A stretch of DNA of 64,000 nucleotides from NCBI GenBank assembly GCA_965116495.1, contig OZ220696.1:768001-832000 (forward strand), given 5' to 3'. Every line of letters starts with the position of its first letter. Position 1 is the first letter of the stretch. This document shows, one piece after another, positions 32,230 to 56,379 of this stretch. The notes under the pieces were generated by a model that had not been told where the DNA came from, made no database searches, and saw nothing but the letters and a program-made list of their open reading frames with translations. The position numbers and the translations under genes were made by a program. This stretch comes from Gammaproteobacteria bacterium (GTDB taxonomy: Bacteria; Pseudomonadota; Gammaproteobacteria; Eutrophobiales; Eutrophobiaceae).

Positions 32230-32399
32230 AATTAAAAATTAGGAATTAAGAATTAATGTGCCGCCTGTGGCGGCGGTTTTTCAATGCATCTTATCCCTTC
32301 CGCAAGTTGGATCAAAGCACACGGTTACGTAACATTTGTAATTCCTAATTCCTAATTCCTAATTCCTAATTCGTAATTCCTAATTCGTAATTCCTAATT
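32230..32399. repeat. Heptamer tandem repeats in inverted arrangement
   Basis: Eight TAATTC(C/G) units plus a partial unit at 32339-32399; four degenerate complementary AATTAnn units at 32230-32257; GCCGCC...GGCGGC hairpin between them. Confidence 0.9.
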
Positions 32400-33541: not shown

Positions 33542-34347
33542 TCACCTTCGAATTCAGGTGTTTTCTTATTGATAAAGGCAGTGTAAGCGCGTTGGAAATC
33601 CGCTGTCTGCATACAGATTGCCTGGGCCTGGGCTTCAGCCTCTATTGCCTGTTCCAGCCCCATATTCCATTCCTGACGCAGCATGGTTTTGGTGATACCG
33701 TGGGCGAACGCGGGTCCCCGGAGCAACCGTCCGGCCAACTTTTTCGCTTCATCCAGTAATGTATCCGCTGATACCAGAGAGTTATAAAATCCCCAGCGAT
33801 GACCTTCATCCGCACTCATGGACCGACCGGTGTACAGTAATTCCGCCGCACGGCCCTGGCCTATAATCCGGGGCAGTATGGCACAAGCGCCCATATCACA
33901 ACCGGCCAGACCGACACGGGTAAACAGGAAAGCCGTTTTTGCTTCCGGTGTCGCTATACGCATATCGCTCGCCATGGCGATTGCGGCGCCGGCGCCCACA
34001 CAGATACCGTCCACCGCAGCGATGACAGGTTGCGGGCAGTGGATCATGGCCTTGATGAGATCGCCGGTCATGCGGGTGAATTCCAGCAGTTCTTTCATGT
34101 TCTTTTGAGTCAGGGGGCCTATGATATCGTGTACGTCACCGCCGGAGCAGAAGTTGCCTTCAGCACCGGTAATAATCACGACCCTGACGTCATCTGCAGC
34201 GGCCAGGTGGCGAAAGGTATCGCGCATTTCCGCATAGGAAGAAAAGGTGAGCGGGTTCTTTCTTTCCGGCCGGTTCAGGGTCAGCGTCGCTACACCATCG
34301 GAACAGGACCAGTCAAAATGCTGCGGGATATATCCGGACATGCTCAT
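33538..34347 (-). CDS. Enoyl-CoA hydratase family protein (abm-cluster type)
   Basis: [44 protein letters not shown]. Confidence 0.92.
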
Positions 34348-34389
34348 TGATAATTTCCGTGTATGTCAGTGATAAGGCGATTATGGGTA

Positions 34390-35154
34390 TCACATTACTT
34401 CGCCACCGGCTATCGGGATGGACTGGCCGGTGACGGATTCGCTGCCTGGCAGGCATAACCAGGCTACCGCGGTGGCTACTTCTTCCGGTTCGATAAACCG
34501 GTGTTGCGGGTTAGCCGATTTGAGGCGCGCTTCAGCATCCTCCCGCGCCATGCCCGTCTTGTCCATAATCCTGGTTATTGCCTCCGTAATCAAGTCAGTA
34601 TTGGTATAGCCCGGGCAGATTGCATTGACGGTTATACCGGTCCCTGCCAGTTCCAGCGCCAGGGAACGGGTAAGGCCGATGACGCCATGTTTGGCCGCGC
34701 AATAAGCCGCCACATAAGCATAGCCGGTAAGCCCGGCAGTACTGGCTATATTGATGATACGGCCCCAGTCTGCTTCAAGCATCCCGTCCAGCACCTGGCT
34801 GCTGCAATAAAATACACCATCCAGGTTAACGGCAATCGACTGTTTCCAACTGTTATTGTCGATGCGCGCGAATGGACTGCTGCCGGCCATGCCGGCGTTA
34901 TTTACCAGGATGTCAACAGGACCAAACCGGGCTACAGCTTCTGCAAACCCTGCCACTACGGTTTCTTCATCAGCTACGTCCAGCTGTACAGCGGATGCGC
35001 GACCTAACTGCTCCGCCCTGGAATGTAAAGAACTTTCCGTCCGGCCCATCAGGGTAATCCTGGCCCCCAGCCGGTCCATTTCCGCTGCGATCGCTGCGCC
35101 TATACCCTTGCCACCGCCGGTAACCACCACATGTTTATCGTTGAGAGCATTCAT
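34390..35154 (-). CDS. SDR oxidoreductase (abm-cluster type, 3-hydroxyacyl-CoA dehydrogenase-like)
   Basis: TGGGKGIG, NNAG, YVAAYCAAKHG, C-terminal AGGEVM. Confidence 0.92.
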   Translation of the reverse strand: MNALNDKHVVVTGGGKGIGAAIAAEMDRLGARITLMGRTESSLHSRAEQLGRASAVQLDVADEETVVAGFAEAVARFGPVDILVNNAGMAGSSPFARIDNNSWKQSIAVNLDGVFYCSSQVLDGMLEADWGRIINIASTAGLTGYAYVAAYCAAKHGVIGLTRSLALELAGTGITVNAICPGYTNTDLITEAITRIMDKTGMAREDAEARLKSANPQHRFIEPEEVATAVAWLCLPGSESVTGQSIPIAGGEVM

Positions 35155-38108: not shown

Positions 38109-39266
38109 TCAGCGGTTGGGCGTATGACCGCAAACCATGCCGGCGATGATCATCTTCTGTATGTTCGAGGTCCCTTCGACTATTTGCAGGGACTTGGCGT
38201 CGCGATAGAACCGTTCGGCCGGGTATTCCGTGGAATAACCGTAGGACCCGAAGATTTTCATACACTCGTTTGCCGCGTGCACCGCTGCTTCGGACGCAGC
38301 AAGTTTGGCCATGGAGGTTTCATACTGGTTGGGCCTGCCCTGATCCTTTAACCAAGCGGCCTTGTATACCAGCAGTTGCGCAGCCTGGTGTTCCACCGCC
38401 ATGTCGGCAATCTGGGACTGTATCATCTGGTGGCGTGAAATGGGTTTGCCGAATTGCTTACGCTCGTTTGCATAGTCAACGGCCAGTTGTAGTGCGCCAC
38501 CGGCCACACCCAGGGCGCCGGCGGCACAACCGATGCGGGTATTGTTCAACTGCCACATGCACATCTTGAAGCCGTTGTTAAGTTCGCCGAGCAGGGCGTT
38601 TTTGGGAACACGTGCGCCTGCAAAGATAAATTCACCGGTCGGGGAGCAATGCAGACCCAGCTTGGTGTCGATGGGCCGGGCAGTACAGCCTTCCAGGTTC
38701 TTGGGTTCGATGATAAAGCAACTGATGCCCTTGTTGCCCTTGTCCCGGTCCGTATAGGCGTACAACAGGCCGGCGTCGCCTATATGGGCGTTGGAGATCC
38801 ATATCTTGCTGCCATGCAGTTCATAATGGTCGCCCCTGTCGATGGCGTGGGTCTTCATGTTGGCAACATCGGAACCGGTATCCGGCTCAGTCATGGCAAA
38901 GAACCCTATTCGGGCGCCATTGATCCAGCCGGGAATGTATTTCTCCTGTTGTTCCTGTGTGCCGAATTCAGCTACTGACAGGGGAGCGCCGAGGTTCTGC
39001 ATGTTGAAGGGCAGTCGCCATGAGGCCGATACCTGGCTAATCTGCTCCGCCATGAGCACGGATTCCAGGAAGCCCATCCCGTTTCCGTTCAATTCTTCCG
39101 GCAACACACATGAAAAAAAACCGAGTTCGCCCATTTCTGCCACGCGTTCCAGCTTGAATTCATGGTTTTTTTCTTCCTGTTCGAGTGTCGGCGCAATTTC
39201 TTCCAGGGCAAATCGCCGGGCCGTATCCTGTACCAGACGCTGCTCTTCGGTTAATTCAAAAAACAT
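38109..39266 (-). CDS. Glutaryl-CoA dehydrogenase, non-decarboxylating type
   Basis: ACAD fold with RxxxN (WRLPFN) carboxylate-binding motif, YAYTD, YGYSTEYP, and Val rather than Tyr before the catalytic Glu (IVEGT); last gene of the decarboxylase operon. Confidence 0.85.
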   Translation of the reverse strand: MFFELTEEQRLVQDTARRFALEEIAPTLEQEEKNHEFKLERVAEMGELGFFSCVLPEELNGNGMGFLESVLMAEQISQVSASWRLPFNMQNLGAPLSVAEFGTQEQQEKYIPGWINGARIGFFAMTEPDTGSDVANMKTHAIDRGDHYELHGSKIWISNAHIGDAGLLYAYTDRDKGNKGISCFIIEPKNLEGCTARPIDTKLGLHCSPTGEFIFAGARVPKNALLGELNNGFKMCMWQLNNTRIGCAAGALGVAGGALQLAVDYANERKQFGKPISRHQMIQSQIADMAVEHQAAQLLVYKAAWLKDQGRPNQYETSMAKLAASEAAVHAANECMKIFGSYGYSTEYPAERFYRDAKSLQIVEGTSNIQKMIIAGMVCGHTPNR

Positions 39267-39279
39267 GGTTGATTCTCTC

Positions 39280-39501
39280 TTATGCAGACTCGATAGACAT
39301 GAGTGGCTGATCCTCCTCCACTTCGTCGCCTTCCTTGACCAGGATTTGTTTCACCTTGCCGTCACAGGGAGCATAGACCGGCGTTTCCATTTTCAAAGCC
39401 TCGATGATAAGCACTTCGTCATCCTCTTCGAGGACTTCGTTCAGTGTTGCCGTAATTTTCCAGATTGTTCCCGACAGGGGCGCCAATACCTCTTCCGCCA
39501 T
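39280..39501 (-). CDS. Stand-alone biotin carboxyl carrier subunit (GcdC-like)
   Basis: 73 aa; APLSG, EALKME biotinyl-lysine motif, VKEGDEV. Confidence 0.92.
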   Translation of the reverse strand: MAEEVLAPLSGTIWKITATLNEVLEEDDEVLIIEALKMETPVYAPCDGKVKQILVKEGDEVEEDQPLMSIESA

Positions 39502-39517
39502 GACTTTTCTCCGAGAT

Positions 39518-40621
39518 TTATTGCAAGATTGTTAGAAATATACCGGCAGCAATGACGGTACCGATTACACCGGCGATATTGGGGCCCATGGCAACCATGA
39601 GCAGGTAATTCTTTTTATCCGCCTCAGCCCCAATTTTCTGAACCACCCGGGCCGCCATCGGCACGGCAGAGACCCCGGCCGCGCCGACCAGGGGATTGAT
39701 CTTGTCCGGGATAAAAATATTCAGCAGTTTGGCCAGCAGTATGCCGCTTGCCGTACTGATCATGAATGCGAACATGCCGAGGAAGAAAATCAGTATGACG
39801 TCACTACGTAAAAAACTGTCTGCGCTCATGGTTGCGCCTATACTGACGCCAAGGAATATGGTTGCTATATTCATCAGGGAATTCTGGGCGGCATCAGTCA
39901 AACGATCGACCACCTTGGATTCCCGGAACAGGTTGCCCAGCATGAACATGGACACCAGGGGCGCAGAAGCAGGTACCATCAGGATAATCACCATGGCGGC
40001 TATTATGGGAAACAGCAGCTTCTCCCTCGGACTGATCTTACGGCCTTTGCGCATGCGGATTTTTCGCTCATTTTCCGTCGTCAACAAACGCATGATAGGG
40101 GGCTGGATGATAGGCACCAGCGCCATGTAGGAATAGGCGGCAACCGCGCAGGCACCGAGCAGGTGCGGCGCCAGTTTCGCCGCCAGAAAGATAGTCGTGG
40201 GTCCGTCCGCCCCGCCAATAATGCTGATGGTGGCGGCATCTTCCAGGCTGAAACCCATCCAGCAAGCCAGAAAAAACGTAAGGTAAACACCCACCTGCGC
40301 GCCTGCGCCCAGAAAGATGAGTAATGGTTGCGAGAGTAACGGGCCGAAATCGGTCAGCGCGCCAAGACCCAGGAAGATCAGGGGGGGAATGATGCGCCAT
40401 TCGATCCCGTGGTGATAGAAGCGCCAGAGCAATCCGTCTCCGGGCTCCATCAGCCCGGTCAACGGCAGGTTGGCAAGGAGAATGCCGAAACCTATGGGCA
40501 GCAGCAACAATGGTTCATACTGCCTGGTGACAGCCAGGTAGAGCAGGGTCAGTCCAATCAGCCACATCAGCAACATTTCGGGCGTGACGGAAAAAATCCC
40601 CATGTTTTCTATAAACGCCAT
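39518..40621 (-). CDS. Na+-translocating decarboxylase beta subunit (GcdB/OadB)
   Basis: EPLLLLPIGFG, GALTDFGP, IIGGADGPT, AYSYMALVP, GVSAVPMAARV, MGPNIAGVIG. Confidence 0.97.
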   Translation of the reverse strand: MAFIENMGIFSVTPEMLLMWLIGLTLLYLAVTRQYEPLLLLPIGFGILLANLPLTGLMEPGDGLLWRFYHHGIEWRIIPPLIFLGLGALTDFGPLLSQPLLIFLGAGAQVGVYLTFFLACWMGFSLEDAATISIIGGADGPTTIFLAAKLAPHLLGACAVAAYSYMALVPIIQPPIMRLLTTENERKIRMRKGRKISPREKLLFPIIAAMVIILMVPASAPLVSMFMLGNLFRESKVVDRLTDAAQNSLMNIATIFLGVSIGATMSADSFLRSDVILIFFLGMFAFMISTASGILLAKLLNIFIPDKINPLVGAAGVSAVPMAARVVQKIGAEADKKNYLLMVAMGPNIAGVIGTVIAAGIFLTILQ

Positions 40622-40749
40622 TATTCTTCTTTATTCTCCGGCTTCCTGTTTACCACCAGCGCGAGCACCTTGACGGCGAAATACAACATTGCCATTCCGG
40701 CGAATACACCGCCGATACCGTTAAGGAATATTTCCAGTGCCTGTTCCAT
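40621..40749 (-). CDS. 42-aa OadG/GcdD-like membrane subunit (absent from the ORF track)
   Basis: MEQALEIFLNGIGGVFAGMAMLYFAVKVLALVVNRKPENKEE; one TM helix with GxxxVF; its stop overlaps the beta-subunit ATG (TAATG). Confidence 0.85.
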   Translation of the reverse strand: MEQALEIFLNGIGGVFAGMAMLYFAVKVLALVVNRKPENKEE

Positions 40750-40772
40750 GAACCTGGTTTTGCCGATAGTGA

Positions 40773-42506
40773 TCAGTTCTTTATAATTCTGGGCAGCATC
40801 ATCTGGTGCCTGGGGCAGATGGAACGCGGGTTCTGGTAAGCTGCTCCTGCAAAAGCCGTAAGATAATTCCTTAATTGCGTCAGGTCCACCACCTCATCGA
40901 CCAGGCCATAACGCGCACAATACTCCGGACTTGAATTTTGCCGGTATTGTTCCGCCAGGGCATTCATCTTGTCGGCAACCTCATCCAGCGGCCTGCCGGC
41001 GTCTTTTTCCTTGACCGCACGCCTCGAGTACATGGCAACGGCTGCGGTCTCACCGTGCATGACAGCTATCTCCGTAGCCGGCGTGCCCAGCGTAAACGCA
41101 TTATGCCGGTTTGCCGTCGGGCCGCCCATCAGGTAGTGAGCCGCGGCCGTCCCCTTGCGCAGAACTACCAGCATCATCGGCAAGTCGGTCTGCTGTATGG
41201 AATAGATCAGGGATTGGCCCAACCCCAGCAGTTCGGCTTTTTCAGCCAGGTCTCCGACGTCGATACCCGAGGTGTCCTGAAACCAGATAACGGGGATACG
41301 GTCACGCCCGCAGTGGGTGACGAATTCGTTCATTTTGATCAGACCCTGGCGATACAGTTTCCCTCCAATACCGGGGTAATCGCCGTATTCCGGATAACCT
41401 TTACCCAGGTAACCGGATCGATTTCCTATACATCCAATTGCAAAACCGTCAAACCTGCATAAGCCCGTGTAGACCTCGGGCCCGTAGTCCGGACGGAATT
41501 CCATGTGTTCGCCGGCGTCCACCAGGCGGGCAAGTATATCGTCAAAGGAATACACCTCTTTCTGGTTAAAAGGCAACAGGTAGTAGAGGTCGTCGGCGGG
41601 ATAGGCCGGCGCGGTGGGTTCGGCAACCTGGAAAAAATGGGGTTTGTACGCAGGCATCGCCTCCATGTATTCCCTGATACCGTCCAGCACTTCCGTCTCT
41701 TCTTCATAGACTTCCGTAAAAAATCCGGTTTCGTCATAATGGGTCTCGGCCCGGCCGGGTGGTTTGGCGCTGAAAGAGCGGGTTTTTTCCACCAGTTCCT
41801 CAAGCATCCCGGCGCTGAATCCCCCTCTTGGCGCCATGCCGGAGACGATACCGACACCGCCTACGGCCATGTTGGCGTCCTTGTGGGCGAGCAGGATAGT
41901 AGGGCTGATGCCGTGATAACCCCCACCGGCGGGGTTTGTGCCGTAAATACCGGCGAGGACCGGCACCCCCAGTTGATTCAATTCTGCATGGCGAAAAAAC
42001 GTCGTGCCTGAACCGCGCCGGTTGGCATAGAACTTTTCCTGCTCATCCAGTTTTACTCCGCTGCAGTTGACCAGCCAGATCAGCGGAATATGGAGTCGTT
42101 TGGCCAGGTCGGTAACACGCAGAATATTCTCGGACTGGCCGGGCAACCAGGCGCCGGCCAACACCTTGTTGTCAAACCCGATCACAACCGCCCAGCGGCC
42201 GGCGACCCTGGCCAGGCCGTCAACCACGTTGGTTGCCCCGGTTGCGTTGTCCATCGGGTTGTAGAGACTGTGCAACGGTCGCCAGGTGCCCGGATCGATC
42301 AGGTATTCCAGGCGTTGCCGGACTGTCATGGCGCCGCGCTTGTTGATTTGTTCCGTGGTGAAACCCGCGTTCTCGACGTCTTTCCTGTGCTGATCAATTT
42401 CCGCCTCAACCTGTTTCAACTGTTCCATGCTTGCGGACGCACGCTTGATCCGGCCTTGCTTCAGTTCCTTGCCGAATCGCTGCATGTTCTCAAAATAAGG
42501 CTTCAT
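40773..42506 (-). CDS. gcdA: Glutaconyl-CoA decarboxylase alpha (carboxyltransferase) subunit
   Basis: MKPYFENM, DNKVLAGAW.PGQ, NCSGVK..EQEK.Y.NRRG.GT.FFR, GTNPAGGGY, GTAAAHY.MGGP, YQNP.SICP.HQM.LPR, as recalled for GcdA. Confidence 0.92.
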   Translation of the reverse strand: MKPYFENMQRFGKELKQGRIKRASASMEQLKQVEAEIDQHRKDVENAGFTTEQINKRGAMTVRQRLEYLIDPGTWRPLHSLYNPMDNATGATNVVDGLARVAGRWAVVIGFDNKVLAGAWLPGQSENILRVTDLAKRLHIPLIWLVNCSGVKLDEQEKFYANRRGSGTTFFRHAELNQLGVPVLAGIYGTNPAGGGYHGISPTILLAHKDANMAVGGVGIVSGMAPRGGFSAGMLEELVEKTRSFSAKPPGRAETHYDETGFFTEVYEEETEVLDGIREYMEAMPAYKPHFFQVAEPTAPAYPADDLYYLLPFNQKEVYSFDDILARLVDAGEHMEFRPDYGPEVYTGLCRFDGFAIGCIGNRSGYLGKGYPEYGDYPGIGGKLYRQGLIKMNEFVTHCGRDRIPVIWFQDTSGIDVGDLAEKAELLGLGQSLIYSIQQTDLPMMLVVLRKGTAAAHYLMGGPTANRHNAFTLGTPATEIAVMHGETAAVAMYSRRAVKEKDAGRPLDEVADKMNALAEQYRQNSSPEYCARYGLVDEVVDLTQLRNYLTAFAGAAYQNPRSICPRHQMMLPRIIKN

Positions 42507-42899: not shown

Positions 42900-43298
42900 A
42901 TGCAAATTGTACTACCGTCCGGCTGGCCCCGTCCTCAAGGCTATTCCAACGGGGTTGCCGCGCGCGGCAAGCTGATCTTTGTCGCAGGACAGATTGGCTG
43001 GGATAGAGATAATATCTTAATCAGCGATAACCTGGCTGAACAGGTGCGCCAGACACTGAAAAATACAATTGCCGTACTGGCCGAGGCAGGTGCGGGACCT
43101 GAACATGTAACCAGGATGACCTGGTATATCCTGGACAAACAGGAGTATCGGGCTTGCTTAAAGGAAATAGGGGAAGCCTACCGGGAAGTCATGGGCAGGA
43201 ACTACCCGGCTATGGCCATGGTGCAGGTCACTGCATTGATTGAGGACCGGGCCCGGGTGGAAATTGAAACGACTGCAGTTCTACCCGATCAATCCTGA
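42900..43298 (+). CDS. RidA/YjgF family enamine/imine deaminase (abm-cluster type)
   Basis: LPSGWPRPQGYSNG, VAGQIGW, RMTWY, VEIETTAV; ATG 42900 preferred over the longer ORF start. Confidence 0.92.
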   Translation: MQIVLPSGWPRPQGYSNGVAARGKLIFVAGQIGWDRDNILISDNLAEQVRQTLKNTIAVLAEAGAGPEHVTRMTWYILDKQEYRACLKEIGEAYREVMGRNYPAMAMVQVTALIEDRARVEIETTAVLPDQS

Positions 43299-43753
43299 TG
43301 AAATCCGGCAACGAATCCAAGCATTCGTTGAGGGCCTGGCTTTACCTGATCAAGTGCTCGAAAAAACTCGACCAGATCATGTCGACCCGGCTGCGTCTTT
43401 ACCATCAGAGTTCCCTGACAAGATTTGACGTACTGGCACACCTGGACCTGGCAGGTGATGCAGGTTTGAGCACTTCGGTACTGGCCGGCAAGCTGCTGGC
43501 ATCAAAGGGGAATATTACCCGCTTGCTCGACAGGATGGAGCAGGACGAACTTATCGTCAGGCACCAGCATTCCGAAGACAAGCGTATCCACAGAATTTGC
43601 TTGTCCGAAAAAGGCGCCGAGGCGTTCAACCGGATGGCGCCGGACCATGAGCGCTGGACCCATGAAATACTGAGCGTGCTTGATTCCCGTGAACAGGCCG
43701 AACTGGTCCGGTTATTGAAAACAGTCAGGTCGCGACTGGAAGATGTCCTGTAA
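43298..43753 (+). CDS. MarR family regulator
   Basis: LRAWL, SLTRFDVLAHL, SKGNITRLLDRME, DKR wing motif. Confidence 0.92.
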   Translation: MKSGNESKHSLRAWLYLIKCSKKLDQIMSTRLRLYHQSSLTRFDVLAHLDLAGDAGLSTSVLAGKLLASKGNITRLLDRMEQDELIVRHQHSEDKRIHRICLSEKGAEAFNRMAPDHERWTHEILSVLDSREQAELVRLLKTVRSRLEDVL

Positions 43754-44138: not shown

Positions 44139-46523
44139 ATGAACGATTTGAAGATAGTCTGTCTCGGCGGGGGACCGGCGTCACTGTATTTCTCCCTCCT
44201 GATGAAAAAAGCGCACTCCGGGCATGATATCACCGTGCTCGAACGCGGCCCCCGTGATGCTACCTGGGGCTTCGGCGTGGTTTTTTCCGACGATACGCTG
44301 CGCGGCTTCATGGAGGCGGATGCGCCCAGCTACAAACGTATCGTCGAGCAATTCGCCTACTGGGACAAGATTGAGACCCGCATGCACGGGACTAAAGTCG
44401 TCAGCGGCGGTCACGGGTTTTGCGGCATGTCGAGACTGAAGTTGCTTAATGCCCTGCATGACCGTTGTGTTGAACTGGGCGTGCTACTGAAGTTCAACAC
44501 CGATATCACCGATCTGGCGCAACTGGATATTGACAAATACGACCTGGTAGTTGCCGGAGACGGCATCACCTCCATGCTGCGTACTGCGTACGCGACGGAA
44601 TTCGGTACCAGGATGGACTGGCGCCCAAATCGCTTCTGCTGGCTGGCAACGACTTTGCCGTTGGACAGTTTCACCTTTATTTTTCGCGAAAACGAACACG
44701 GTTGGTGGTGGGTGCATGGCTATCGTTATGAAGAGGGGATGTCCACCTGGATCGTGGAATGCAGCCAGAAAACCTGGATCAACGCCGGCATGGATTCGTT
44801 CTCCGAGGATGATACCCGAACCTATATTGAAGAAGTGTTCAGGGAAGACCTGCAGGGGCATCCCATTATAACCAACCGGTCGCTATGGCGCGAATTCCCC
44901 GTGGTGACTAACGCCAGGCTGTATTACAAAAATATTGTCCTGCTCGGGGATGCCGGGCGTTCGGCCCACTTTTCCATCGGTTCCGGCACCAAGCTGGCCA
45001 TGGAAGACGCAATTACCCTGGCAGATTTTTTTCGACAGCAGGACTACCGGGTCAACGCCACCCTGGCTGCTTACCAGGAAGTGCGAAAACCTGAGGCAGA
45101 CCGGCTGCAACGCACCGCGGTGACCAGCCTGCGCTGGTTTGAGAACATTGATCACTACGCGCAGCAGGATGTGGAGCAATTCACCTTCAACATGATGGTG
45201 CGTTCCAAACGCGTCACTTACGAGAACCTCAGGCTGCGCGATCCCGCGTTTATTCAATCCATAGACAAGTGGTTTGCCGGATATACCCATACGCTGACGG
45301 GGTTTGACGATATCGATACGGACAACCCCGCGGCGCCGATGTTCCAGCCTTTCAGGATCGGCCGTATGCGCGTCGAAAACCGGGTCCAGCTTTCCGCCAT
45401 GTGCCAATATTGTGCGACGGACGGCCTTCCCGGCGAGTGGCACTTCGTCCATTACGGCGCCAGGGGAATAGGCGGCGCGGGCCTGGTCAGTACGGAAATG
45501 CTGTGCACATCGGCAGACGGGCGGATTACCCCCGGTTGTGCCGGGATATGGAACGATGAACAAACGGAACAATGGCGCCGTATTACCGCGTTCATCCATG
45601 CCCATAGCGAGGCGAAAGTATGCGGGCAAATCGGCCATGCCGGCCGTAAGGGAGCGACCTGTATTCCCTGGCGGGGCGGGATCGATCAGCCGCTCCCGGA
45701 CAACGCCTGGGAGACTATCGCACCGTCACCTCTGCCGTACCTGGAACACAGCCGCCTGCCGCGGGAAATGTCAAGGGAGGACATGGAAGGGGTGGAAGCG
45801 GATTTCGTGAATGCGACCGGGAATGCCGCAGATGCCGGGTTCGATATGCTGGAAGTGCACATGGCGCACGGCTATTTATTGTCTTCCTTTATCAGCCCTT
45901 ACACCAACCGGCGTACTGATGAATATGGCGGGGATATCGGCAACCGCGCCCGGTTTCCGTTGCGTATCCTGCGTGCGGTACGCCAGGCATGGCCGTCGGA
46001 ACGGCCCTTATCGGTGAGAATTTCGGCAACCGACTGGATCAGCGACGGCTTGTCCGGGGAGGATTTGTCCAAACTGGTTTTACTGCTGCAGGAAAACGGC
46101 GCCGACATCATCAATGTATCGACAGGACAGGTCGTCAGCCATGAGGAACCCGTCTACGGACGTATGTACCAGGCGCCATTTGCCGATCGGATCCGCAATG
46201 AACTGGGAATTTCGACCATGGTTGCCGGCAATATCAGCAGTGCAGACCAGGTCAACACCCTGGTCGCCGCAGGGCGGACCGACCTGGTTGCCCTGGCGCG
46301 CCCGATTATGAACGAGCCTCAATTCGTATTGAATGCTGCTGCCCGTTACGGTTACCGGGAGCAGCACTGGCCAGTGCAATACGAGGCGGGAAAATTCGCG
46401 GCGGAACTGAATGCCGCCAGGGAAAACCTGGAACAGGATGAACTGAGAAGCAACGCCAAACCACCGAATCCGCAGGAAATGCTGGCCATTGCCATAGCCC
46501 GCGGTGAGGTGTTATTGGATTGA
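44139..46523 (+). CDS. Bifunctional anthraniloyl-CoA monooxygenase/reductase (AbmA / salicylyl-CoA 5-hydroxylase family)
   Basis: N-terminal FAD monooxygenase (GGGPA, WGFGVVFSD, AHFSIGSGTKLAMED, RVTYENLRLRD) fused to an OYE-like domain (MCQY, HAGRKG, HMAHGYLLSSFISP). Confidence 0.92.
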   Translation: MNDLKIVCLGGGPASLYFSLLMKKAHSGHDITVLERGPRDATWGFGVVFSDDTLRGFMEADAPSYKRIVEQFAYWDKIETRMHGTKVVSGGHGFCGMSRLKLLNALHDRCVELGVLLKFNTDITDLAQLDIDKYDLVVAGDGITSMLRTAYATEFGTRMDWRPNRFCWLATTLPLDSFTFIFRENEHGWWWVHGYRYEEGMSTWIVECSQKTWINAGMDSFSEDDTRTYIEEVFREDLQGHPIITNRSLWREFPVVTNARLYYKNIVLLGDAGRSAHFSIGSGTKLAMEDAITLADFFRQQDYRVNATLAAYQEVRKPEADRLQRTAVTSLRWFENIDHYAQQDVEQFTFNMMVRSKRVTYENLRLRDPAFIQSIDKWFAGYTHTLTGFDDIDTDNPAAPMFQPFRIGRMRVENRVQLSAMCQYCATDGLPGEWHFVHYGARGIGGAGLVSTEMLCTSADGRITPGCAGIWNDEQTEQWRRITAFIHAHSEAKVCGQIGHAGRKGATCIPWRGGIDQPLPDNAWETIAPSPLPYLEHSRLPREMSREDMEGVEADFVNATGNAADAGFDMLEVHMAHGYLLSSFISPYTNRRTDEYGGDIGNRARFPLRILRAVRQAWPSERPLSVRISATDWISDGLSGEDLSKLVLLLQENGADIINVSTGQVVSHEEPVYGRMYQAPFADRIRNELGISTMVAGNISSADQVNTLVAAGRTDLVALARPIMNEPQFVLNAAARYGYREQHWPVQYEAGKFAAELNAARENLEQDELRSNAKPPNPQEMLAIAIARGEVLLD

Positions 46524-46583
46524 ACATGCGTTATAATTTACCGGGCATGTAACGACATGAAGGACAGGGTGGGAGAATCTAAG

Positions 46584-47906
46584 ATGACAAAATACACCGA
46601 TGAACAACTGGCCGGTTTGATCAGAAAAGATTGCGTCCATAGAAACGTCTATACCGATCCTGAAATCTTTGATCTTGAGATGGAACGCATCTGGACCAAA
46701 GCCTGGATCTACGTGGGCCATGACAGTCAGGTAAAACAGCCGGGCGACTATTTCGCCACCAGTATCGGCAGGCAGCCTGTCATCATGACCCGGCACAGCG
46801 ACGGAAAGGTTTACGTTCTGTTCAACCGCTGCAGCCACAAGGGCGCCCAGGTGGTAGGTGAGAGTTGCGGCCACATGCAGCAGTTACGCTGCAGCTACCA
46901 TGGTTACGTATTCGACACCGACGGCACCTTGATACATATCCCCCGGGAAGAAGCCTACGACGGCGCCGGGTTCGGCAAAGGCAAGGCGGAATCCAATATG
47001 CAGCGGGTACCGCGGGTGGACAGTTACCACGGCCTGGTATTCGCCAGCCTGTCTGCACAAGGTCCTGATCTGAAAACCTGGTTAAGTGGCGCCGCGGCAT
47101 CCATTGATAACCTGGTGGAACGCTCACCGGAAGGGCGTATTGAAATTGCCGGGGGCTGTTTCCGTTACCTGCATGATTCCAACTGGAAGATGTTTGTGGA
47201 AAACCTGAATGACGCCATGCACCCGATGGTCGTTCACCAGTCGTCCAGCGGTACTGCCAAACGGGTATTTGATGAACGCCTGAAAGAGGGGGACCCGGTA
47301 CCGTTCGAACTTGAGATGCTGGCGCCGTTCACCAACAACTACGAGTTCTTTGAAAAGATGGGGCTCACTGCCTGGGACAACGGTCACAGTGTCACCGGAG
47401 GCAAGTTCAGTATCCATTCAGCCTATTCACCCATTCCCGGCTACATGGATTCCCTGGTCGAAAAATATGGCGAGCAGAAGGCGCGGGAAATCCTAGCGGT
47501 AAACCGCCACAACACCGTGGTCTATCCCAGCTTTACCCTGAAGGGCGCAATCACCTCGATACGCGTGGTCAAACCTGTGGCCGTAGACAGAACCGTTATC
47601 GAATCCTGGGTGTTCAGACAGGTAGGAGCGCCGGAAGAACTGTTTCGACGTTCCATCACTTACTGCAACCTCATCAATTCCCATGCCAACCTGGTAGGCC
47701 CCGATGACTACGAAGCCTATCACCGCCTGCAATATGGCCTGCAGACACAGGATGATAACGAATGGGTAAGCCAGCACCGCTACCTGGACCAGGAAGAGCT
47801 GGAGGAAAATGGGACCAAGCATGCAGCAGGGACGTCCGATATGGTCTTTCGCCACCAGTATCAGACCTGGAAAAACTATATGGTCGACACCCGGCATGCA
47901 CAATGA
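46584..47906 (+). CDS. Rieske ring-hydroxylating oxygenase alpha subunit (IadD-like)
   Basis: NRCSH...CSYH Rieske motif; NWKMFVENLNDAMHPMVVH mononuclear Fe motif; GGGAG RBS before ATG 46584. Confidence 0.93.
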   Translation: MTKYTDEQLAGLIRKDCVHRNVYTDPEIFDLEMERIWTKAWIYVGHDSQVKQPGDYFATSIGRQPVIMTRHSDGKVYVLFNRCSHKGAQVVGESCGHMQQLRCSYHGYVFDTDGTLIHIPREEAYDGAGFGKGKAESNMQRVPRVDSYHGLVFASLSAQGPDLKTWLSGAAASIDNLVERSPEGRIEIAGGCFRYLHDSNWKMFVENLNDAMHPMVVHQSSSGTAKRVFDERLKEGDPVPFELEMLAPFTNNYEFFEKMGLTAWDNGHSVTGGKFSIHSAYSPIPGYMDSLVEKYGEQKAREILAVNRHNTVVYPSFTLKGAITSIRVVKPVAVDRTVIESWVFRQVGAPEELFRRSITYCNLINSHANLVGPDDYEAYHRLQYGLQTQDDNEWVSQHRYLDQEELEENGTKHAAGTSDMVFRHQYQTWKNYMVDTRHAQ

Positions 47907-48396
47907 ACAAACGGGCAACCCGCCCGACATCAAATCGATTGAGCAGTTCCTGTACCATGAAGCGCGCCTGCTGGATGAGCAACGCTGGGAAGAATGGAAC
48001 GCCCTGTACCTGGACGATGCCGAATACTGGGTACCGGCGGCACCGGACCAGCCGGATCCGCACAACCATGTCTCCCTGATCTATGAGACCGGGCTGCTCA
48101 GGGCTGTGCGTATCAAACGCTATAAACACCCGAATGCATTTTCCCTGCAGCCCAGGCCGCGCAGTGTGCACCTGATAAACAATATCATCCTGGACAAGTT
48201 TGATGCGGACAGCGGGGAGTGCAGCGTCAATTCTCGTTTTGTCATGCTGCAGTACCGCCGTGAAAAACAGGATGTATTCGCCGGGTCCTGCAATCACAGG
48301 CTGCGCATAGAGGGAGACGAATTCAGGATCGCGGGCAAGCGCGTAGACCTGCTCAACTGCGATGCGCCGCTGGAAAATATACTTATCTACCTGTAA
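47896..48396 (+). CDS. Ring-hydroxylating oxygenase beta subunit (IadE-like)
   Basis: QFLYHEARLLDEQRWEEW...YWVP...KRVDLLNCD. Confidence 0.93.
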   Translation: MHNEQTGNPPDIKSIEQFLYHEARLLDEQRWEEWNALYLDDAEYWVPAAPDQPDPHNHVSLIYETGLLRAVRIKRYKHPNAFSLQPRPRSVHLINNIILDKFDADSGECSVNSRFVMLQYRREKQDVFAGSCNHRLRIEGDEFRIAGKRVDLLNCDAPLENILIYL

Positions 48397-48696
48397 ATGC
48401 CGCCAGGACGTACTAAATCCATCACCTCCGCCGCCTATCTGAAATTCGGGCACACCCACAGCGGATTGTCGCGGCGGCTGCTCATTGTGCTGATCGCCCT
48501 GGTGCTGGGGTTTGATTTTCTCTGTGTTTACGCAGCTGAATTCATGGGTGCGCCCCTGTCAGAAGGCAGTGTCGTGTCAATCGGCATCGCTATTGCACTG
48601 CTCATTATCCTGTTCATTCTTACTGCTGCCCTGTACTACGTCCGGCGGATCAATACGGCATACCTCGAAATGCATAAATCCCCGGATGAAGACTGA
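48397..48696 (+). CDS. DUF485/YjcH-like small membrane partner of the symporter
   Basis: Two TM segments and C-terminal YYVRRIN; directly upstream of an ActP-like gene. Confidence 0.8.
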   Translation: MPPGRTKSITSAAYLKFGHTHSGLSRRLLIVLIALVLGFDFLCVYAAEFMGAPLSEGSVVSIGIAIALLIILFILTAALYYVRRINTAYLEMHKSPDED

Positions 48697-50335
48697 ATCA
48701 TACCGTATCCGACTCCTTGTCGTACCGGCGTTGTTGTTGCTGATGGCAACAGCTCCGGTCACGGCTGGGGCAGGGGAACAGGAACTTAACTACCCCGCCA
48801 TAACCTCATTCCTACTGTTCATCATAGCTACCCTGTTTGTTACCGCCTATGCGGCCCGCCGTACCCGCTCCAGGCAGGACTTCTATGTCGCGGCTAACAC
48901 GATAGGCGGTTTACAGAACGGCATTGCGATTTCCGGCGACTACATGTCAGCCGCCTCGTTCCTCGGCCTGGTCGGCCTGCTCTTCCTCGGTGGTTTCGAC
49001 ACCATCTATTTCATCGTCAACCTGATCCTGAGTTGGGCGGTTGTGCTGATGCTTATCGCCGAAAAACTGCGCAACCTGGGGTCTTATACCTTTGCGGACG
49101 CGGTCTCCGTCAGGTTGGCGTCCAGGCCAATCCGGGTGCTGGCGGCAACGGGAACCCTGGCCGTTGCCATACCCTACCTGCTGGCACAGATGGTTGCCGC
49201 CGGCACCCTGGTTGAATCCCTGTTTGGTCTCGATTATATCCAGGGCGTGCTGATCGTCGGTGTGTTGATGACGGTTTATGTGACGTTCGGCGGCATGATC
49301 GCAACAACCTGGGTCCAGATAATCAAGGCGGTACTGCTGGTCGGCGGCGGCACCATACTTGCCGTCGGCATATTGTTTACCTTTGATTTTAACGTCAACG
49401 AACTGGCCGGCCTGGCGGTAAACAAACACCCGGAGGGACTGGCCATCATGCAACCGGGCCTGCTTTACCCGGATATCGTCACCGTCATCTCCCTGAGCCT
49501 GGCGTTTATCGGCGGCACCGCCGGATTACCCCATGTCATGATGCGCTTTTTCACTGTACCGGACGGGGTGCAGGCAAGACGTTCCGCAGCCTGGGCCATG
49601 GGCATCATCAGTTATTTCCAGTTCGTAGTACTGATTATCGGTTTAGGCGCTATCGTGTTATTGACGGACAACCCGGAATTTACCAGTGGCGGACTCGAGG
49701 TTATCGGCGGCAGCAATATGGCGGCGATCCACCTGTCCCAGGTCGTCGGCGGTAATATTTTCATGGGTTTCATCTGTGCGGTTGCGTTCGCTACCATTCT
49801 CGCCGTCGTTTCCGGGCTGATGTTATCCGCCGCAACCACCATATCCCATGACCTGTATGCCGGGGTGATCCGCAAGGGGTCATGCACCGATGCGGAAGAA
49901 TTACGCGTTTCCAGACTGACAGTGGTCATGTTAAGTATCGTCGGCATCCTGCTGGCGGTCTTGTTCAAGGGACAGAATGTCGCGGTACTCGCCACCTTGC
50001 CCCTGGTGATCGCAGCCAGCGCCAATTTTCCGGTGCTACTCCTGTTCATGTACTGGAGAGGATTTACCACCCGGGGAGCATTATTCGGCGGTTATACCGG
50101 ATTGTTACTGGCCGTCTCCCTGATTATCCTGGGCCCGACCGTATGGGTAAACGTGCTGGGCCATGAGGCACCGGTATTCCCCTATGCGTATCCGACGCTG
50201 TTTTCCATGGGCGCGTGCTTCCTGTTTGCCTGGTTTTTCTCAATTACGGATAATAGTCCGCGAGCCGCTGCTGAAGCGGATGCTTTTGACGAGCAATTGC
50301 GGCGCTCGCAGATCGGAGAACTGTCCCATGGGTAA
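48686..50335 (+). CDS. Cation/solute symporter, ActP-like (SSS family)
   Basis: QNGIAISGDYMSAASFLG, GGMIATTWVQIIKA, GTAGLPHVMMRFFTVP, AVAFATILAVVSGL. Confidence 0.93.
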   Translation: MKTESYRIRLLVVPALLLLMATAPVTAGAGEQELNYPAITSFLLFIIATLFVTAYAARRTRSRQDFYVAANTIGGLQNGIAISGDYMSAASFLGLVGLLFLGGFDTIYFIVNLILSWAVVLMLIAEKLRNLGSYTFADAVSVRLASRPIRVLAATGTLAVAIPYLLAQMVAAGTLVESLFGLDYIQGVLIVGVLMTVYVTFGGMIATTWVQIIKAVLLVGGGTILAVGILFTFDFNVNELAGLAVNKHPEGLAIMQPGLLYPDIVTVISLSLAFIGGTAGLPHVMMRFFTVPDGVQARRSAAWAMGIISYFQFVVLIIGLGAIVLLTDNPEFTSGGLEVIGGSNMAAIHLSQVVGGNIFMGFICAVAFATILAVVSGLMLSAATTISHDLYAGVIRKGSCTDAEELRVSRLTVVMLSIVGILLAVLFKGQNVAVLATLPLVIAASANFPVLLLFMYWRGFTTRGALFGGYTGLLLAVSLIILGPTVWVNVLGHEAPVFPYAYPTLFSMGACFLFAWFFSITDNSPRAAAEADAFDEQLRRSQIGELSHG

Positions 50336-50371
50336 ACACAGGCTGCCCAGTCATACTGCCGGAAGAATTGT

Positions 50372-52015
50372 ATGGAAATGACTACCGTGTACGACAAATT
50401 TCTGGAAACCGGGCGGAACGTCCCGGCACAGGCCTTCCTGCACATCCCGCACCAGGCAGCCCGGGGGTACCATCAAGGCCCGGTTGACTATACCTACAAC
50501 CAGGCTCGCCAGGCCGCCGCTTCACTGAGCGAACGCTATGCTGCCGCAGGCTACGGGCACGGCCACAGAATTGCCGTCATGCTGGACAATCGCGCCGATT
50601 TTTTCCTGCACTTTCTGGCCCTGAACAAACTTGGAGTGAGCGTCGTGCCGGTCAATTCCGGCTTCCTTCCCGGTGAAATCAACTACGTCATCAGCCACAG
50701 TGATGCCTGTCTTGTCCTGTGCCTGCCCCAATATCGCGGGAAAGTGGAGGCCGCTTTGTCCGCTCAAGGTACAGCCACTCCAATCACGGACACCTCTGCA
50801 ACGACGGAATTACCACCTTGCAGGCAGGCAATTACGGACGGAACGCCCGACCGGCATTCTGAAGTAGCCGTACTGTATACCTCCGGCACAACGGGTAAAC
50901 CCAAAGGCTGTATGCTGAACAATGAATATTTTACCTGCATGGGCGAGTGGTACGCGAATATAGACGGCTATTGCCGGTTGACGTATGGAGAGGAGCGGAT
51001 GCTGACACCGCTGCCGCTGGTCCACATGAATGCATTATGCTCCATGATGGCCATGATCATGAGTGGCGGTTGCATAATCCAGCTGGACCGTTTCCATGCT
51101 TCCAACTGGTGGGATACGGTACGCTCCTCCGGGGCTACCTGTCTGCACTACCTGGGAGTAATCCCGGCAATTCTGCTGAACCAGCCGGAAACGGAACATG
51201 ACAACCTGGGGACACAGGTCAAGTTCGGTTTCGGCGCCGGGGTTGATCCGAAACACCTGCAACGATTTGAACGGCGTTTTGGTTTTCCCCTGGTGGAGGG
51301 TTGGGCCATGACGGAGACCGGCACTCACGTCTGTATCACCGCCAATAAGGAGCCGCGCCATATCGGGACACGCTGCATCGGCAGGGCGCCGGAGACCATC
51401 GAGTATCGCCTCGTGGATGAACAGGGGAAAGATGTCGGACCGGGTGAACCGGGAGAGTTGTTAATTCGCGCCAGTGGGGAAAACCCGCGCAAGGGTTTCT
51501 TTTCCGGCTACTATAAAAACCCTGAAGAAACTGCCAGGGTATGGGAAGGGGGCTATTTCCATACCGGCGATGTGGTGCGCATCAGCGAGGACGGTTCTTT
51601 TCATTTTGTCGACCGCCGTAAAAACATCATCCGGCGCAGTGGCGAAAATATCGCTGCCGTTGAAGTGGAGAACATCCTGTTCCAGCATCCGGTCATCGCC
51701 AATTGCGCGGTGACGCCTGTTTACGATGAACTACGCGGCGAAGAAGTAGGCGTTTGCATTATCCTGAGTGAAACCGTACGGGAACAGTATGCCGGCAATG
51801 ATGCCGTGGCAGATGCCTTGTTCGCTTTCTGCCTTGAACAGTTGATTTACTACAAGGTTCCGGCTTATTACCTGTTCGTAACCGAGTTGCCCATGACCGT
51901 GTCGCAGAAATTGCAACGCGGTGAAATCAAAACCCTTGCCAACAGGCTGGTGGAAGAGGGCAGATGTATCGACCTGAGAAAGCGCAAGCGCAGGAATAAA
52001 AATGCAGCCCTATAA
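50372..52015 (+). CDS. AMP-forming acyl-CoA ligase
   Basis: YTSGTTGKPKG, WAMTE, FHTGD, RRSGENI. Confidence 0.93.
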   Translation: MEMTTVYDKFLETGRNVPAQAFLHIPHQAARGYHQGPVDYTYNQARQAAASLSERYAAAGYGHGHRIAVMLDNRADFFLHFLALNKLGVSVVPVNSGFLPGEINYVISHSDACLVLCLPQYRGKVEAALSAQGTATPITDTSATTELPPCRQAITDGTPDRHSEVAVLYTSGTTGKPKGCMLNNEYFTCMGEWYANIDGYCRLTYGEERMLTPLPLVHMNALCSMMAMIMSGGCIIQLDRFHASNWWDTVRSSGATCLHYLGVIPAILLNQPETEHDNLGTQVKFGFGAGVDPKHLQRFERRFGFPLVEGWAMTETGTHVCITANKEPRHIGTRCIGRAPETIEYRLVDEQGKDVGPGEPGELLIRASGENPRKGFFSGYYKNPEETARVWEGGYFHTGDVVRISEDGSFHFVDRRKNIIRRSGENIAAVEVENILFQHPVIANCAVTPVYDELRGEEVGVCIILSETVREQYAGNDAVADALFAFCLEQLIYYKVPAYYLFVTELPMTVSQKLQRGEIKTLANRLVEEGRCIDLRKRKRRNKNAAL

Positions 52016-53165
52016 CGATGTTGCGCTGGTTGCCGCGACCAGTATTCCCTATGTGCGGCGCAGCGAGCGAAGCGCTGCCTGGTTTATAGGCACCGTCTTC
52101 GCAAGAATGATCGAGACCGCGGGATTAAACAGGAATGAGATTGACGGCCTGGCCATAGCCAGCTTTACCCTGGCGCCCGACAGCGTTGTCAGCATGACCG
52201 AATATCTCGATATCTCGCCCGGTTGGCTGGAACAGATCCCGATGGGCGGCGCCAGCGGACCCGTGGCCGTCCGGCGCGCGGCCCGTGCGGTACAAGCGGG
52301 CGATGCCGGGGTCGTGGCATGTATCGGCGCCGATACGGCTTCTGCCAGCACCTTTAGGGACCTGGTCAGCAATTTCAGTCGGTTCTCAACCGATGCCGTA
52401 TTCCCCTACGGCGCAGGCGGACCGAATACCGTGTTTGCCATGATTACCCGCCACTACATGGAGAAATACGGGGCGGAACGGGAAGATTTCGGCCGTGTCT
52501 GCATTGCCCAGAGGGAAAATGCGCTGGCCGCGGGCACTGCCGTCTTCAAAACACCGTTATCGATGGAGGACTACCTCGATGCACGTTCCATCAGCGAACC
52601 CCTGCACCTGTTCGATTGCGTCATGCCCGTCGCCGGGGCGGACGGTTTCCTGGTCATGACGGTTGCCCGGGCCCGGTCGCTGGGCCTGCCTTATGCCAGG
52701 ATACTGGCTGCGGGAGAGAAGCATAACGCCTGGTCCGGTGACGACGTTCACTTTCGCGGCGGCTGGAGCCTGTACCGTGACCGGATGTACGAGCAGGCTG
52801 ACCTCGGCCCCGGTGATATTGATTTTCTGCAGACATACGACGACTACCCGGTCATTTCCATGATCCAGATGGAAGACCTGGGCTTTTGTGAAAAGGGCGG
52901 GGCGGCCGAATTTGTCCGCACTCACCCGTTGACCTGGAACGGCGGAGGCCTGCCGCATAATACCTGCGGCGGTCAACTATCCGCGGGGCAGGCAGGCGCT
53001 GCCGGCGGTTTCCTGGGTACGGTCGAAGCGATCCGCCAGTTGACTGAAACCGGTTTGTCCAACCAGGTCGCCGGCGCAATGGCGGGTATGGCAAGCGGCT
53101 ATGGAATGGTCAATTACGATCACTGTTTATGCACCAGTGCCGTAATACTCGGGAGGGGAGAATGA
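52002..53165 (+). CDS. SCP-x-type thiolase family protein
   Basis: MGGASG, DCVMP, TYDDYP, HNTCGGQLSAGQAG; paired with an OB-fold gene. Confidence 0.9.
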   Translation: MQPYNDVALVAATSIPYVRRSERSAAWFIGTVFARMIETAGLNRNEIDGLAIASFTLAPDSVVSMTEYLDISPGWLEQIPMGGASGPVAVRRAARAVQAGDAGVVACIGADTASASTFRDLVSNFSRFSTDAVFPYGAGGPNTVFAMITRHYMEKYGAEREDFGRVCIAQRENALAAGTAVFKTPLSMEDYLDARSISEPLHLFDCVMPVAGADGFLVMTVARARSLGLPYARILAAGEKHNAWSGDDVHFRGGWSLYRDRMYEQADLGPGDIDFLQTYDDYPVISMIQMEDLGFCEKGGAAEFVRTHPLTWNGGGLPHNTCGGQLSAGQAGAAGGFLGTVEAIRQLTETGLSNQVAGAMAGMASGYGMVNYDHCLCTSAVILGRGE

Positions 53166-53617
53166 TGAGCGGCCAAGCGGGCCCACCCGTTGCACGCTCC
53201 GCCCTTTGGCAGCAAGTCAACCAGGCAGCAAAAGAGGAGGCTTTCAAGCTGCAGGTCTGCAGCAAGTGTGACAGGGTTCAGTATCCGCCCCGGGAATTCT
53301 GCAGTTATTGCCTGGTTGGCGAATTGTCATGGGAAACTGTCAGCCCGATGGGAAAAGTGCTGTCCTGGACCACAACCCATGCCAGCAGCAACCGGTTTTT
53401 CAAGGGTATACTACCTTTTCACGTCGGCATGATTAAACTGGATTGCGGCCCGGTTCTGATCGCATACCTGGCTACGGCATCATTACACACGGGGAGCCGG
53501 GTTCAGGTCACAGGCATGCCGGACAAGTCCGGCCAGGCCGTTTTCCTTGCCGGACCGCCGGGTACGGATCCGCGGGTTGAATTCAGTCACATACTGATTA
53601 AAAATGTTGATAAATAG
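53162..53617 (+). CDS. Zn-ribbon/OB-fold (DUF35-like) thiolase partner
   Basis: QVCSKC..VQYPPREFCSYC; ATGA overlap with the thiolase. Confidence 0.9.
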   Translation: MMSGQAGPPVARSALWQQVNQAAKEEAFKLQVCSKCDRVQYPPREFCSYCLVGELSWETVSPMGKVLSWTTTHASSNRFFKGILPFHVGMIKLDCGPVLIAYLATASLHTGSRVQVTGMPDKSGQAVFLAGPPGTDPRVEFSHILIKNVDK

Positions 53618-53619
53618 TA

Positions 53620-53646
53620 CTGGATTCCTGCCTCCGCAGGAATGAC
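53620..53646. repeat. REP-like palindrome (GGATTCC...GGAATGAC class)
   Basis: CTGGATTCCTGCCTCCGCAGGAATGAC; ATTCCTGC/GCAGGAAT stem. Confidence 0.75.
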
Positions 53647-53668
53647 GGATAATTCGATGAGGTGAGAC

Positions 53669-54400
53669 ATGGCGAAAAAAAATAAGGTGGTTGTAATAAC
53701 GGGCGGCAACAGGGGTATAGGCGCCGATATTACCCGGCGTTTTCTTGACAGCGGTTACCTGGTCGTCAATATCTCCCGGCAGACCCCTGAATTCTCCCAC
53801 GAGCGCCTGGTCAACTACACGGCGGACCTGGCAGATCCGCAGGCAACCATGGACGTCGGCATGGAGATAGCAGGTAACCATACGGTAACGGACTTCATTC
53901 ACAACGCCGGGGTGATCCGTCCGGATTTGCTGGAAGACGTGAAGCTGGAAGACCTGGACTACCTGACCCAGTTGCACCTGGGCAGCGCCATCACGCTTGC
54001 GCAACAGTTTATTCCCGCCATGCGCAGCGCGCAGTACGGCCGCATCATCCTCATATCATCCCGCGGCGTGCTGGGACTCGTAACCCGGACGAATTACGCC
54101 GCAACCAAAGCCGGTCAGATCGGTATCACGCGCACCTGGGCGCTGGAACTGGCAAAAGACGGGATCACTGTAAACTGCGTCGCGCCGGGTCCCATCGTGA
54201 CAGACATGTTCCATGAACTGGTCCCGGAAGACAGCGAGCAGAAGTCCAGGATTGCAGGGAGCGTCCCTGTCAAACGCCTGGGCACACCCGAAGACATCGG
54301 CCGTGTAGTCAAGTTTTTATGCGAGGAAGAGAGCGGTTTCATCACGGGACAGACCTGGTACATCTGCGGCGGCGCCAGCCTGGGATCTCTGGCTTTGTGA
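53669..54400 (+). CDS. SDR oxidoreductase
   Basis: TGGNRGIG, HNAGVIR, RTNYAATK, ICGGASLG. Confidence 0.92.
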   Translation: MAKKNKVVVITGGNRGIGADITRRFLDSGYLVVNISRQTPEFSHERLVNYTADLADPQATMDVGMEIAGNHTVTDFIHNAGVIRPDLLEDVKLEDLDYLTQLHLGSAITLAQQFIPAMRSAQYGRIILISSRGVLGLVTRTNYAATKAGQIGITRTWALELAKDGITVNCVAPGPIVTDMFHELVPEDSEQKSRIAGSVPVKRLGTPEDIGRVVKFLCEEESGFITGQTWYICGGASLGSLAL

Positions 54401-56309: not shown

Positions 56310-56379
56310 TATCCGGTCTGGCAGGGGAGGGGCAGACCCCCGCTTACAACCCTGCCTCGGGGGCCAGGGCAGGCATGCG

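Follow-up and report, generated by a model that had tools for sequence, protein, structure and literature searches.

Why should a gene for an anthraniloyl-coenzyme A (CoA) monooxygenase stand directly in front of genes that resemble those of bacterial auxin degradation? The question is raised by positions 44139-54400 of a 64,000-nucleotide stretch (hereafter the window; positions 768,001 to 832,000 of contig OZ220696.1, assembly GCA_965116495.1) from a gammaproteobacterium of the family Eutrophobiaceae, whose genome (G000) is closed (4.34 Mb, 99.5% complete) and has gammaproteobacterial metagenome-assembled genomes (MAGs) as its nearest relatives. The abmA, Rieske alpha and beta, symporter, CoA ligase, thiolase-fold, OB and short-chain dehydrogenase/reductase (SDR) genes listed here by an earlier note are indeed present, intact and co-oriented; with one addition, a DUF485 gene at 48397-48696, the region comprises nine intact reading frames, all on the + strand, with spacings of -14 to +51 bp from the alpha to the SDR gene and a gap of 33-60 bp between abmA and alpha. 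We propose that it is probably a shortened iad-type operon, in which indole-3-acetate (IAA) or a close ring-substituted analogue would be converted to isatin and acetyl-CoA by retro-aldol cleavage, with anthraniloyl-CoA being formed thereafter by enzymes encoded in trans.

The Rieske oxygenase and its iad-type neighbors

In a PDB search the alpha subunit (46557..47906, +; likely start 46584) retrieved the Variovorax IadD structures 7YLS and 9O71 with 472 bits (E 2e-140), the next Rieske oxygenase reaching 153 bits, and it matches IadD of Ruegeria pomeroyi with 539 bits. The four motif blocks previously quoted as recalling IadD are all present and align with the Variovorax protein, with a single I/L difference in the first. 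Ten positions, namely nine IAA-pocket residues and the iron-binding Asp (N210, L211, H216, H221, F251, H311, K322, R329, Y362 and D377, as listed in the available text of Ma et al., PMC10374108), are all kept as NLHHFHKRYD, and the four closest alpha paralogues in the host genome each deviate at 1-5 pocket positions. The window counterparts of IadD, IadF, IadG, IadJ and the N-terminal 150 residues of IadH are the best genome matches of the proteins from all four reference iad operons, so that the iad-like character of the locus is borne out. In unrelated genomes, too, the alpha gene is bordered by this module, which is therefore not a chance arrangement.

Phylogenetically, the alpha groups in a clade (ultrafast bootstrap 98) that is sister to the classical IadD clade (100). 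The union of the two received full support (1.0) in a FastTree analysis of 83 sequences and only 66 in an IQ-TREE analysis of 40 (a subset of the 83 plus one sequence, with a near relative standing in for Variovorax IadD). This value and the identity to Variovorax-type IadD of only ~47% (about 207/436 by match-line count) weigh against our interpretation. Judged from sequence, the locus is a sister lineage of iad with an IadD-type pocket and IadD-type gene neighbors. A related Rieske clade with the pocket NLHHNHHRYD is found at L084:12001, L082:15001, L121 and G000:956766-959337; it adjoins genes for an isochorismatase-family protein and a dienelactone hydrolase, for instance on pCAR1 beside antABC, and probably serves a different indole-type pathway.

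The beta subunit IadE (47896..48396, +, alternative start 47809; PF00866) is the best genome match of three of the four reference IadE proteins. The acyl-CoA ligase IadF (50372..52015, +) is 46-47% identical to all four reference IadF and their best genome match (468-509 bits, runner-up 218-229), as is the SDR dehydrogenase IadJ (53669..54400, +; 46-52%) for the four reference IadJ. According to the available text of Jiang et al. (bioRxiv 10.1101/2025.10.25.684584), Variovorax IadCDE and IadJ make dioxindole-3-acetate, and IadF, IadG and IadH were assigned by annotation, IadG as a ketothiolase; iad gene annotations are likewise given in the accessible part of PMC12852158. By homology to the Variovorax genetics, IadJ would here yield dioxindole-3-acetate and IadF its CoA ester.

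Several iad components are missing. No IadC orthologue was found in the genome, the best match of the IadC hidden Markov model (HMM) being 128 bits on a MOSC fusion. Because Variovorax can do without IadC in culture, and because the host genome holds 32 Rieske alpha-like frames and few reductases, a shared electron donor for IadDE encoded elsewhere is plausible, and IadDE would, by homology, monooxygenate IAA with such a reductase. Candidate donors are an 87-aa stand-alone PDR-type ferredoxin (G000:1440961-1441224) and the MOSC-reductase fusion (G000:1774587-1776314). The genome further yielded no orthologue of the IadH SDR domain (HMM best 50 bits, against 437-470 for self-matches), none of IadI (best match 30-34%) and none of IadR. 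The window MarR, considered as a candidate IadR, proved to be of the abm type and not an IadR orthologue.

IadG as a predicted retro-aldolase

The thiolase-fold protein IadG (52002..53165, +) carries Gly83, a Y279-D-D-Y motif and Gln330. In alignment with the thiolase 7YVY, Gly83 lies opposite the nucleophilic Cys that follows strand β3 and is absent in IadG, while YDDY lies opposite HDAF. All three features are kept in 54 of 54 IadG orthologues, including that of R. pomeroyi, and recur at a locus with an alpha close to Variovorax IadD (816 bits; this near relative stood in for Variovorax IadG itself). The top sequence and fold matches of IadG are the retro-aldolases Sal-Shy and Ltp2-ChsH2, whose second members are DUF35 proteins, and the catalytic Tyr, Gly and Gln of Sal and Ltp2, as described in the accessible part of PMC12329534, match those of IadG; according to the same source, thiolysis is impossible with Gly in the nucleophile position, and the Tyr of the motif acts as the base. 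Given the lack of a nucleophilic Cys and this resemblance to retro-aldolases, IadG likely splits its substrate into isatin and acetyl-CoA rather than releasing anthraniloyl-CoA. Together with DUF35 it would cleave dioxindole-3-acetyl-CoA, a tertiary β-hydroxyacyl-CoA. Isatin fits as the product, since isatin and isatinic acid were detected in Variovorax (available text of PMC9613470) and IadI of R. pomeroyi is orthologous to isatin hydrolase (361 bits). One feature stands against this assignment: in place of the general acids, Cys304 in Sal and Tyr344 in Ltp2, IadG has Asp281 (for the Cys of Sal) and Gln330. Asp281 is invariant in 41 of 41 aligned IadG sequences and may itself serve as the general acid.

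The adjacent stand-alone DUF35 protein (53165..53617, +; Zn ribbon plus OB, PF12172/PF01796) corresponds to the N-terminal domain of IadH and aligns only to IadH residues 23-153. Across 48 iad-type loci (one non-iad paralogue was left out of the count), DUF35 forms a frame of its own 24 times and belongs to a longer one 24 times; at two loci, L031:14846 and L063:14648, it shares a frame with an IadJ-like SDR and not with the IadH SDR. The modelled IadG-DUF35 complex scored 0.91, a mark reached by 116 of 157 solved pairs and 2 of 215 mismatched pairs, and the best control scored 0.00; the runs agree in 94% of contacts, with a partner predicted local distance difference test (pLDDT) value of 89-90. 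The model supports binding, but as like complexes have been solved it shows likeness only.

Likely habitat, possible upstream feed and substrate range

A sponge-metagenome contig (one run, one study) covers positions 44139-50313 with 106 differences in 6175 bases. The other 19 datasets holding this block carry coded or other labels, and no RNA dataset is among the listed holders. On the strength of this match a sponge habitat of the host is likely and the organism is probably marine, a possibility that the earlier note had raised. In a survey of 61 genomes of this marine family, whose kin are not independent so that all counts are descriptive only, an iadD of the window type occurs in 16. Of 304 marine MAGs in a published screen (PMC11630574), 2 were reported to carry iad with an identity cut-off of >50%, which would likely miss the window alpha at ~47%.

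A tryptophan tryptophylquinone (TTQ) amine dehydrogenase, encoded as a heavy/light pair, lies 18 kb downstream of the operon together with a second alpha without a beta (G000:840682-843856; the second alpha at 842474-843856), whose pocket reads NVHHFQKRYD (L211V, H311Q). An old-yellow-enzyme gene also belongs to this group (G000:840682-845478; L094:8682-13478). Twelve genomes have close heavy-chain orthologues, each of them belonging to the 16 with iadD, and TTQ amine dehydrogenase genes neighbor iad genes in 8 of 80 loci (5 close, 3 distant). The host genome holds three such dehydrogenases. Aromatic amine dehydrogenase oxidizes tryptamine; we hypothesize that tryptamine feeds the iad operon, with the TTQ enzyme supplying its substrate.

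The same observations bear on a somewhat different possibility, which we consider unlikely without being negligible, namely that the operon acts on halogenated or hydroxylated indole-acetate derived from host tryptamines, the second alpha widening its range. The sister-clade position of the first alpha, the association of TTQ genes with iad, the second alpha, the sponge match and the occurrence of brominated tryptamines in sponges would all suit such a role. However, the pocket of the first alpha is that of Variovorax IadD, which the available text of PMC10374108 describes as IAA-selective and poorer on 4-Cl-IAA, and in a PDB search the amine dehydrogenase is as near to the methylamine type as to the aromatic amine type (175-176 bits each).

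Possible routes from isatin to anthraniloyl-CoA

For the shortened iad-type operon that we favor, two routes beyond isatin can be envisaged from genes elsewhere in the genome. In the first, a divergent cyclase (G000:1353097-1353870), directly preceding a fused IorAB that is 60%/49% identical to Azospirillum iadAB, would open isatin to isatinate, which IorAB would convert to anthraniloyl-CoA. Such an oxidative decarboxylation would parallel the phenylglyoxylate oxidoreductase reaction. The genes iorA and iorB are marker genes of iad-type loci (Conway et al.). Eight of the 61 family genomes have IorAB, three with a true IadI and five with the divergent cyclase, neither of which was found in the other 53; in seven of the eight the cyclase gene immediately precedes iorA. 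The metal motif HxGTHxDxPxH is conserved in the divergent cyclase, and Gln occupies the alignment position of the isatin hydrolase GLQ motif, the signatures of isatin hydrolase being HxG[TA]HxDxPxH, GLQC/GLAS and a WxW pocket motif in the available text of PMC6117287. A second cyclase (G000:3038020-3038814), closer to IadI by identity (30-34%), was rejected as IadI because its first metal-binding His is absent, Glu stands in the signature and its occurrence does not follow that of iadD.

In the second route, free anthranilate would be activated by an AbmG-like ligase (G000:3538723-3540354), whose best structure match is anthranilate-CoA ligase and which is 54% identical to the ligases encoded in the abm clusters of Comamonas and Ralstonia, being the best match of these in the genome. 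The absence of a 2-aminobenzoate-CoA ligase asserted in the earlier note thus holds for the window and fails for the genome, where this AbmG orthologue lies 2.7 Mb from the abm cluster. The TIGR02262 cut-off was discarded as a test for such ligases: no protein passed it, yet a 313-bit match is the AbmG orthologue. A ligase of this type occurs in 7 of 9 abmA-positive family genomes and, at >=52% identity (that is, at least 52%), in none of the other 52. Among distant genomes, three with iorAB-iad-abmA runs (completeness unknown) have no AbmG match above 35%, and of two others tested one was positive. The region around the ligase (G000:3533395-3542238; L099:6395-15238) also holds genes for hydantoinase A/B, an isochorismatase-family hydrolase and a divergent amidase, neighbors that suggest another anthranilate-yielding route.

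Anthraniloyl-CoA from either route would be dearomatized by AbmA and the neighboring abm products. We take abm to be the aerobic 2-aminobenzoyl-CoA degradation cluster of the Azoarcus/Aromatoleum evansii type. AbmA, the 2-aminobenzoyl-CoA monooxygenase/reductase (44139..46523, +; 794 aa), combines a flavin adenine dinucleotide (FAD) monooxygenase domain with an old-yellow-enzyme (OYE) domain; it scores 1040 bits against profile NF006101 (cut-off 1078) and is the best genome match to abmA of the Comamonas abm cluster (46%). The window also encodes RidA (63% identical to Comamonas abm RidA) and the abm-type MarR upstream of abmA (42900..43753, +), as well as the abm SDR, enoyl-CoA hydratase and acyl-CoA dehydrogenase (32366..35154, -), which are 54%, 66% and 60% identical to their Comamonas counterparts and their best genome matches. 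With the ligase in trans the abm set is nearly complete; an abm thioesterase was not found in the genome. The gene abmA lies directly upstream of alpha in 11 of 32 close loci, and adjacency is seen in two genera; among 48 distant loci it is downstream of iad genes in 3, as it also is on an Azospirillum plasmid; it occurs in 9 of the 61 family genomes, all among the 16 with iadD. Five close relatives chosen for abmA-free loci all lack abmA genome-wide and keep the iad genes, three of them with IorAB and the ligase. The coupling of abmA to iad is therefore real and recurrent, but optional, being neither unique nor obligatory.

Further points count against the steps proposed here. The divergent cyclase is only 26% identical to IadI and reaches 25 bits against isatin hydrolase structures, has IIQL instead of GLQC and is without the WxW motif. 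The annotated substrate of IorAB is indolepyruvate, and in Variovorax iadC-K2 sufficed to restore anthranilate fully although iorAB was absent (available text of bioRxiv 10.1101/2025.10.25.684584), so that IorAB is not needed there. In one relative (G054; one contig, 96% complete) iadD, abmA and AbmG occur together, yet IorAB and both cyclases are missing, and 6 of the 16 iadD genomes have neither abmA nor IorAB. These six, five of them 92-98% complete and all likewise without an IadI orthologue or the divergent cyclase in the searches made, speak for an alternative that we judge improbable, whereby the module only harvests the acetyl unit, isatin or dioxindole is excreted, and abm serves anthranilate of other origin, its adjacency being historical; the operon in the window, with no iadI and no IadH reductase domain, would agree with this. 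Yet the host genome encodes the cyclase and IorAB in one operon, has AbmG and lacks little of the abm set, and abmA was detected solely in iadD genomes (9/9).

Finally, the view of the earlier note, that IadG acts as a thiolase handing anthraniloyl-CoA directly to AbmA in a compact, self-contained CoA-channelled pathway that needs no ligase, has in its favor the abmA-alpha adjacency and the ketothiolase annotation of Jiang et al. (available text), but is very improbable, as the absence of the nucleophilic Cys in 54/54 orthologues largely refutes a thiolase, Gly for Cys, YDDY and the first-ranking aldolase folds place two more steps before anthraniloyl-CoA, the enzymes proposed for those steps and the ligase (in 7/9 abmA-positive genomes) are encoded in trans, and close relatives retain iad without abmA.

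Transport genes and genomic surroundings

Between iadE and iadF lie genes for a DUF485 membrane protein (48397..48696, +; PF04341), the partner of ActP, and an ActP-type sodium/monocarboxylate symporter (48686..50335, +; NF006903, 702 bits). A 51% identical paralogue of the latter sits within the phenylacetate cluster of the host genome; the symporter likely takes up an arylacetate substrate and would here import IAA.

Divergent from the abm/iad genes, a block at 38109..42506 (-) encodes glutaryl-CoA dehydrogenase and Na+-pumping glutaconyl-CoA decarboxylase subunits (NF045552 with 437 bits, under the 470 cut-off; TIGR01109; PF01039), and it adjoins these genes in relatives as well. A non-decarboxylating glutaryl-CoA dehydrogenase with a Na+-pumping decarboxylase is typical of anaerobes. 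In most loci of the family, including ones without abmA, this gcd-type block adjoins iadD in divergent orientation; gcdA occurs in 13 of the 61 genomes, 10 of which are iadD-positive. The abm cluster is interrupted by nirBD-like nitrite reductase genes (35273-38073, +), found in the same position in loci L014 and L027. Repeats comprise a 33-bp unit in three copies at 42688-42785, in the divergent promoter region between gcdA and ridA, and a 7-bp unit in 8.7 copies at 32339-32399, at the end of the abm acyl-CoA dehydrogenase gene. A promoter and terminator scan of the region gave counts near chance (13 against 8.7 and 19 against 12.4). Following the operon, window positions 54759-63937 (-) and G000:832244-835887 encode a CoA ligase, an Nramp-like transporter, a hydrolase, hydantoinase A/B, a luciferase-like monooxygenase and a xanthine-dehydrogenase-type molybdoenzyme; the hydantoinase and molybdoenzyme genes loosely resemble the anaerobic iaa set, and there are more than 20 hydantoinase-like matches genome-wide.

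Relation to known systems

Neither the iad pathway nor abm is new, and marine iad loci are known from R. pomeroyi. Among the papers found, mostly open-access main texts, none states an aldolase role of IadG, action of IorAB on isatinate, IAA degradation by sponge symbionts or a link between tryptamine and iad; for the late iad steps, the most recent study, to judge from its available text, still gives IadG the annotation of a ketothiolase. We tentatively put forward, as a possibility well short of even, that sponge-associated Gammaproteobacteria run a route from tryptamine over indoleacetate and isatin to anthraniloyl-CoA on host alkaloids, in which IadG-DUF35 is a new YDDY class of retro-aldolase, DUF35 the essential part of IadH, and IadAB/IorAB an isatinate oxidoreductase making anthraniloyl-CoA. 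If true, relatives without the lower steps would release isatin. The locus offers sharp tests of the aldolase activity of IadG with DUF35, of the dispensability of the IadH SDR domain and of the link from IorAB to anthraniloyl-CoA, the first of which, if confirmed, would revise the current view of a known auxin pathway.

Runs closest in arrangement are those of an Azospirillum thermophilum plasmid and of Burkholderiales and other proteobacterial MAGs (L083, L039, L042, L074), where, as in the window, iad and abmA are co-oriented without a ligase in the cluster; there abmA is downstream and iorAB upstream, and none has been experimentally characterized in the papers found. The Comamonas plasmid abm cluster has orthologues in the host of its abmA, SDR, hydratase, acyl-CoA dehydrogenase, RidA, MarR and ligase, but in the host the cluster is split by nirBD and the glutaconyl-CoA decarboxylase module, with the ligase 2.7 Mb away. 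Sal-Shy (9MYR) and Ltp2-ChsH2 (6OK1), as described in the available text of PMC12329534, share with IadG the Cys-less thiolase fold, the Tyr of YDxY/F, a DUF35 partner and the β-hydroxyacyl-CoA type of substrate; IadG differs in being only 28-29% identical to Sal and Ltp2, in having YDDY instead of YDCY/YDHF and in its predicted oxindole, rather than steroid, substrate. The iad systems of Variovorax paradoxus CL14 and R. pomeroyi DSS-3 (PMC9613470, PMC10374108, bioRxiv 10.1101/2025.10.25.684584) agree with the window in the order of iadD, E, F, G, J and the DUF35 of iadH, and share with the host the same IAA pocket and the presence of iorAB (iadAB) in the genome. In contrast to these, the window is without iadC, the IadH SDR domain, iadI and iadR, has an ActP symporter inserted in place of ABC/TRAP transporters, and combines a sister-clade alpha with joined abm genes and with iorAB in a separate operon beside a divergent cyclase.

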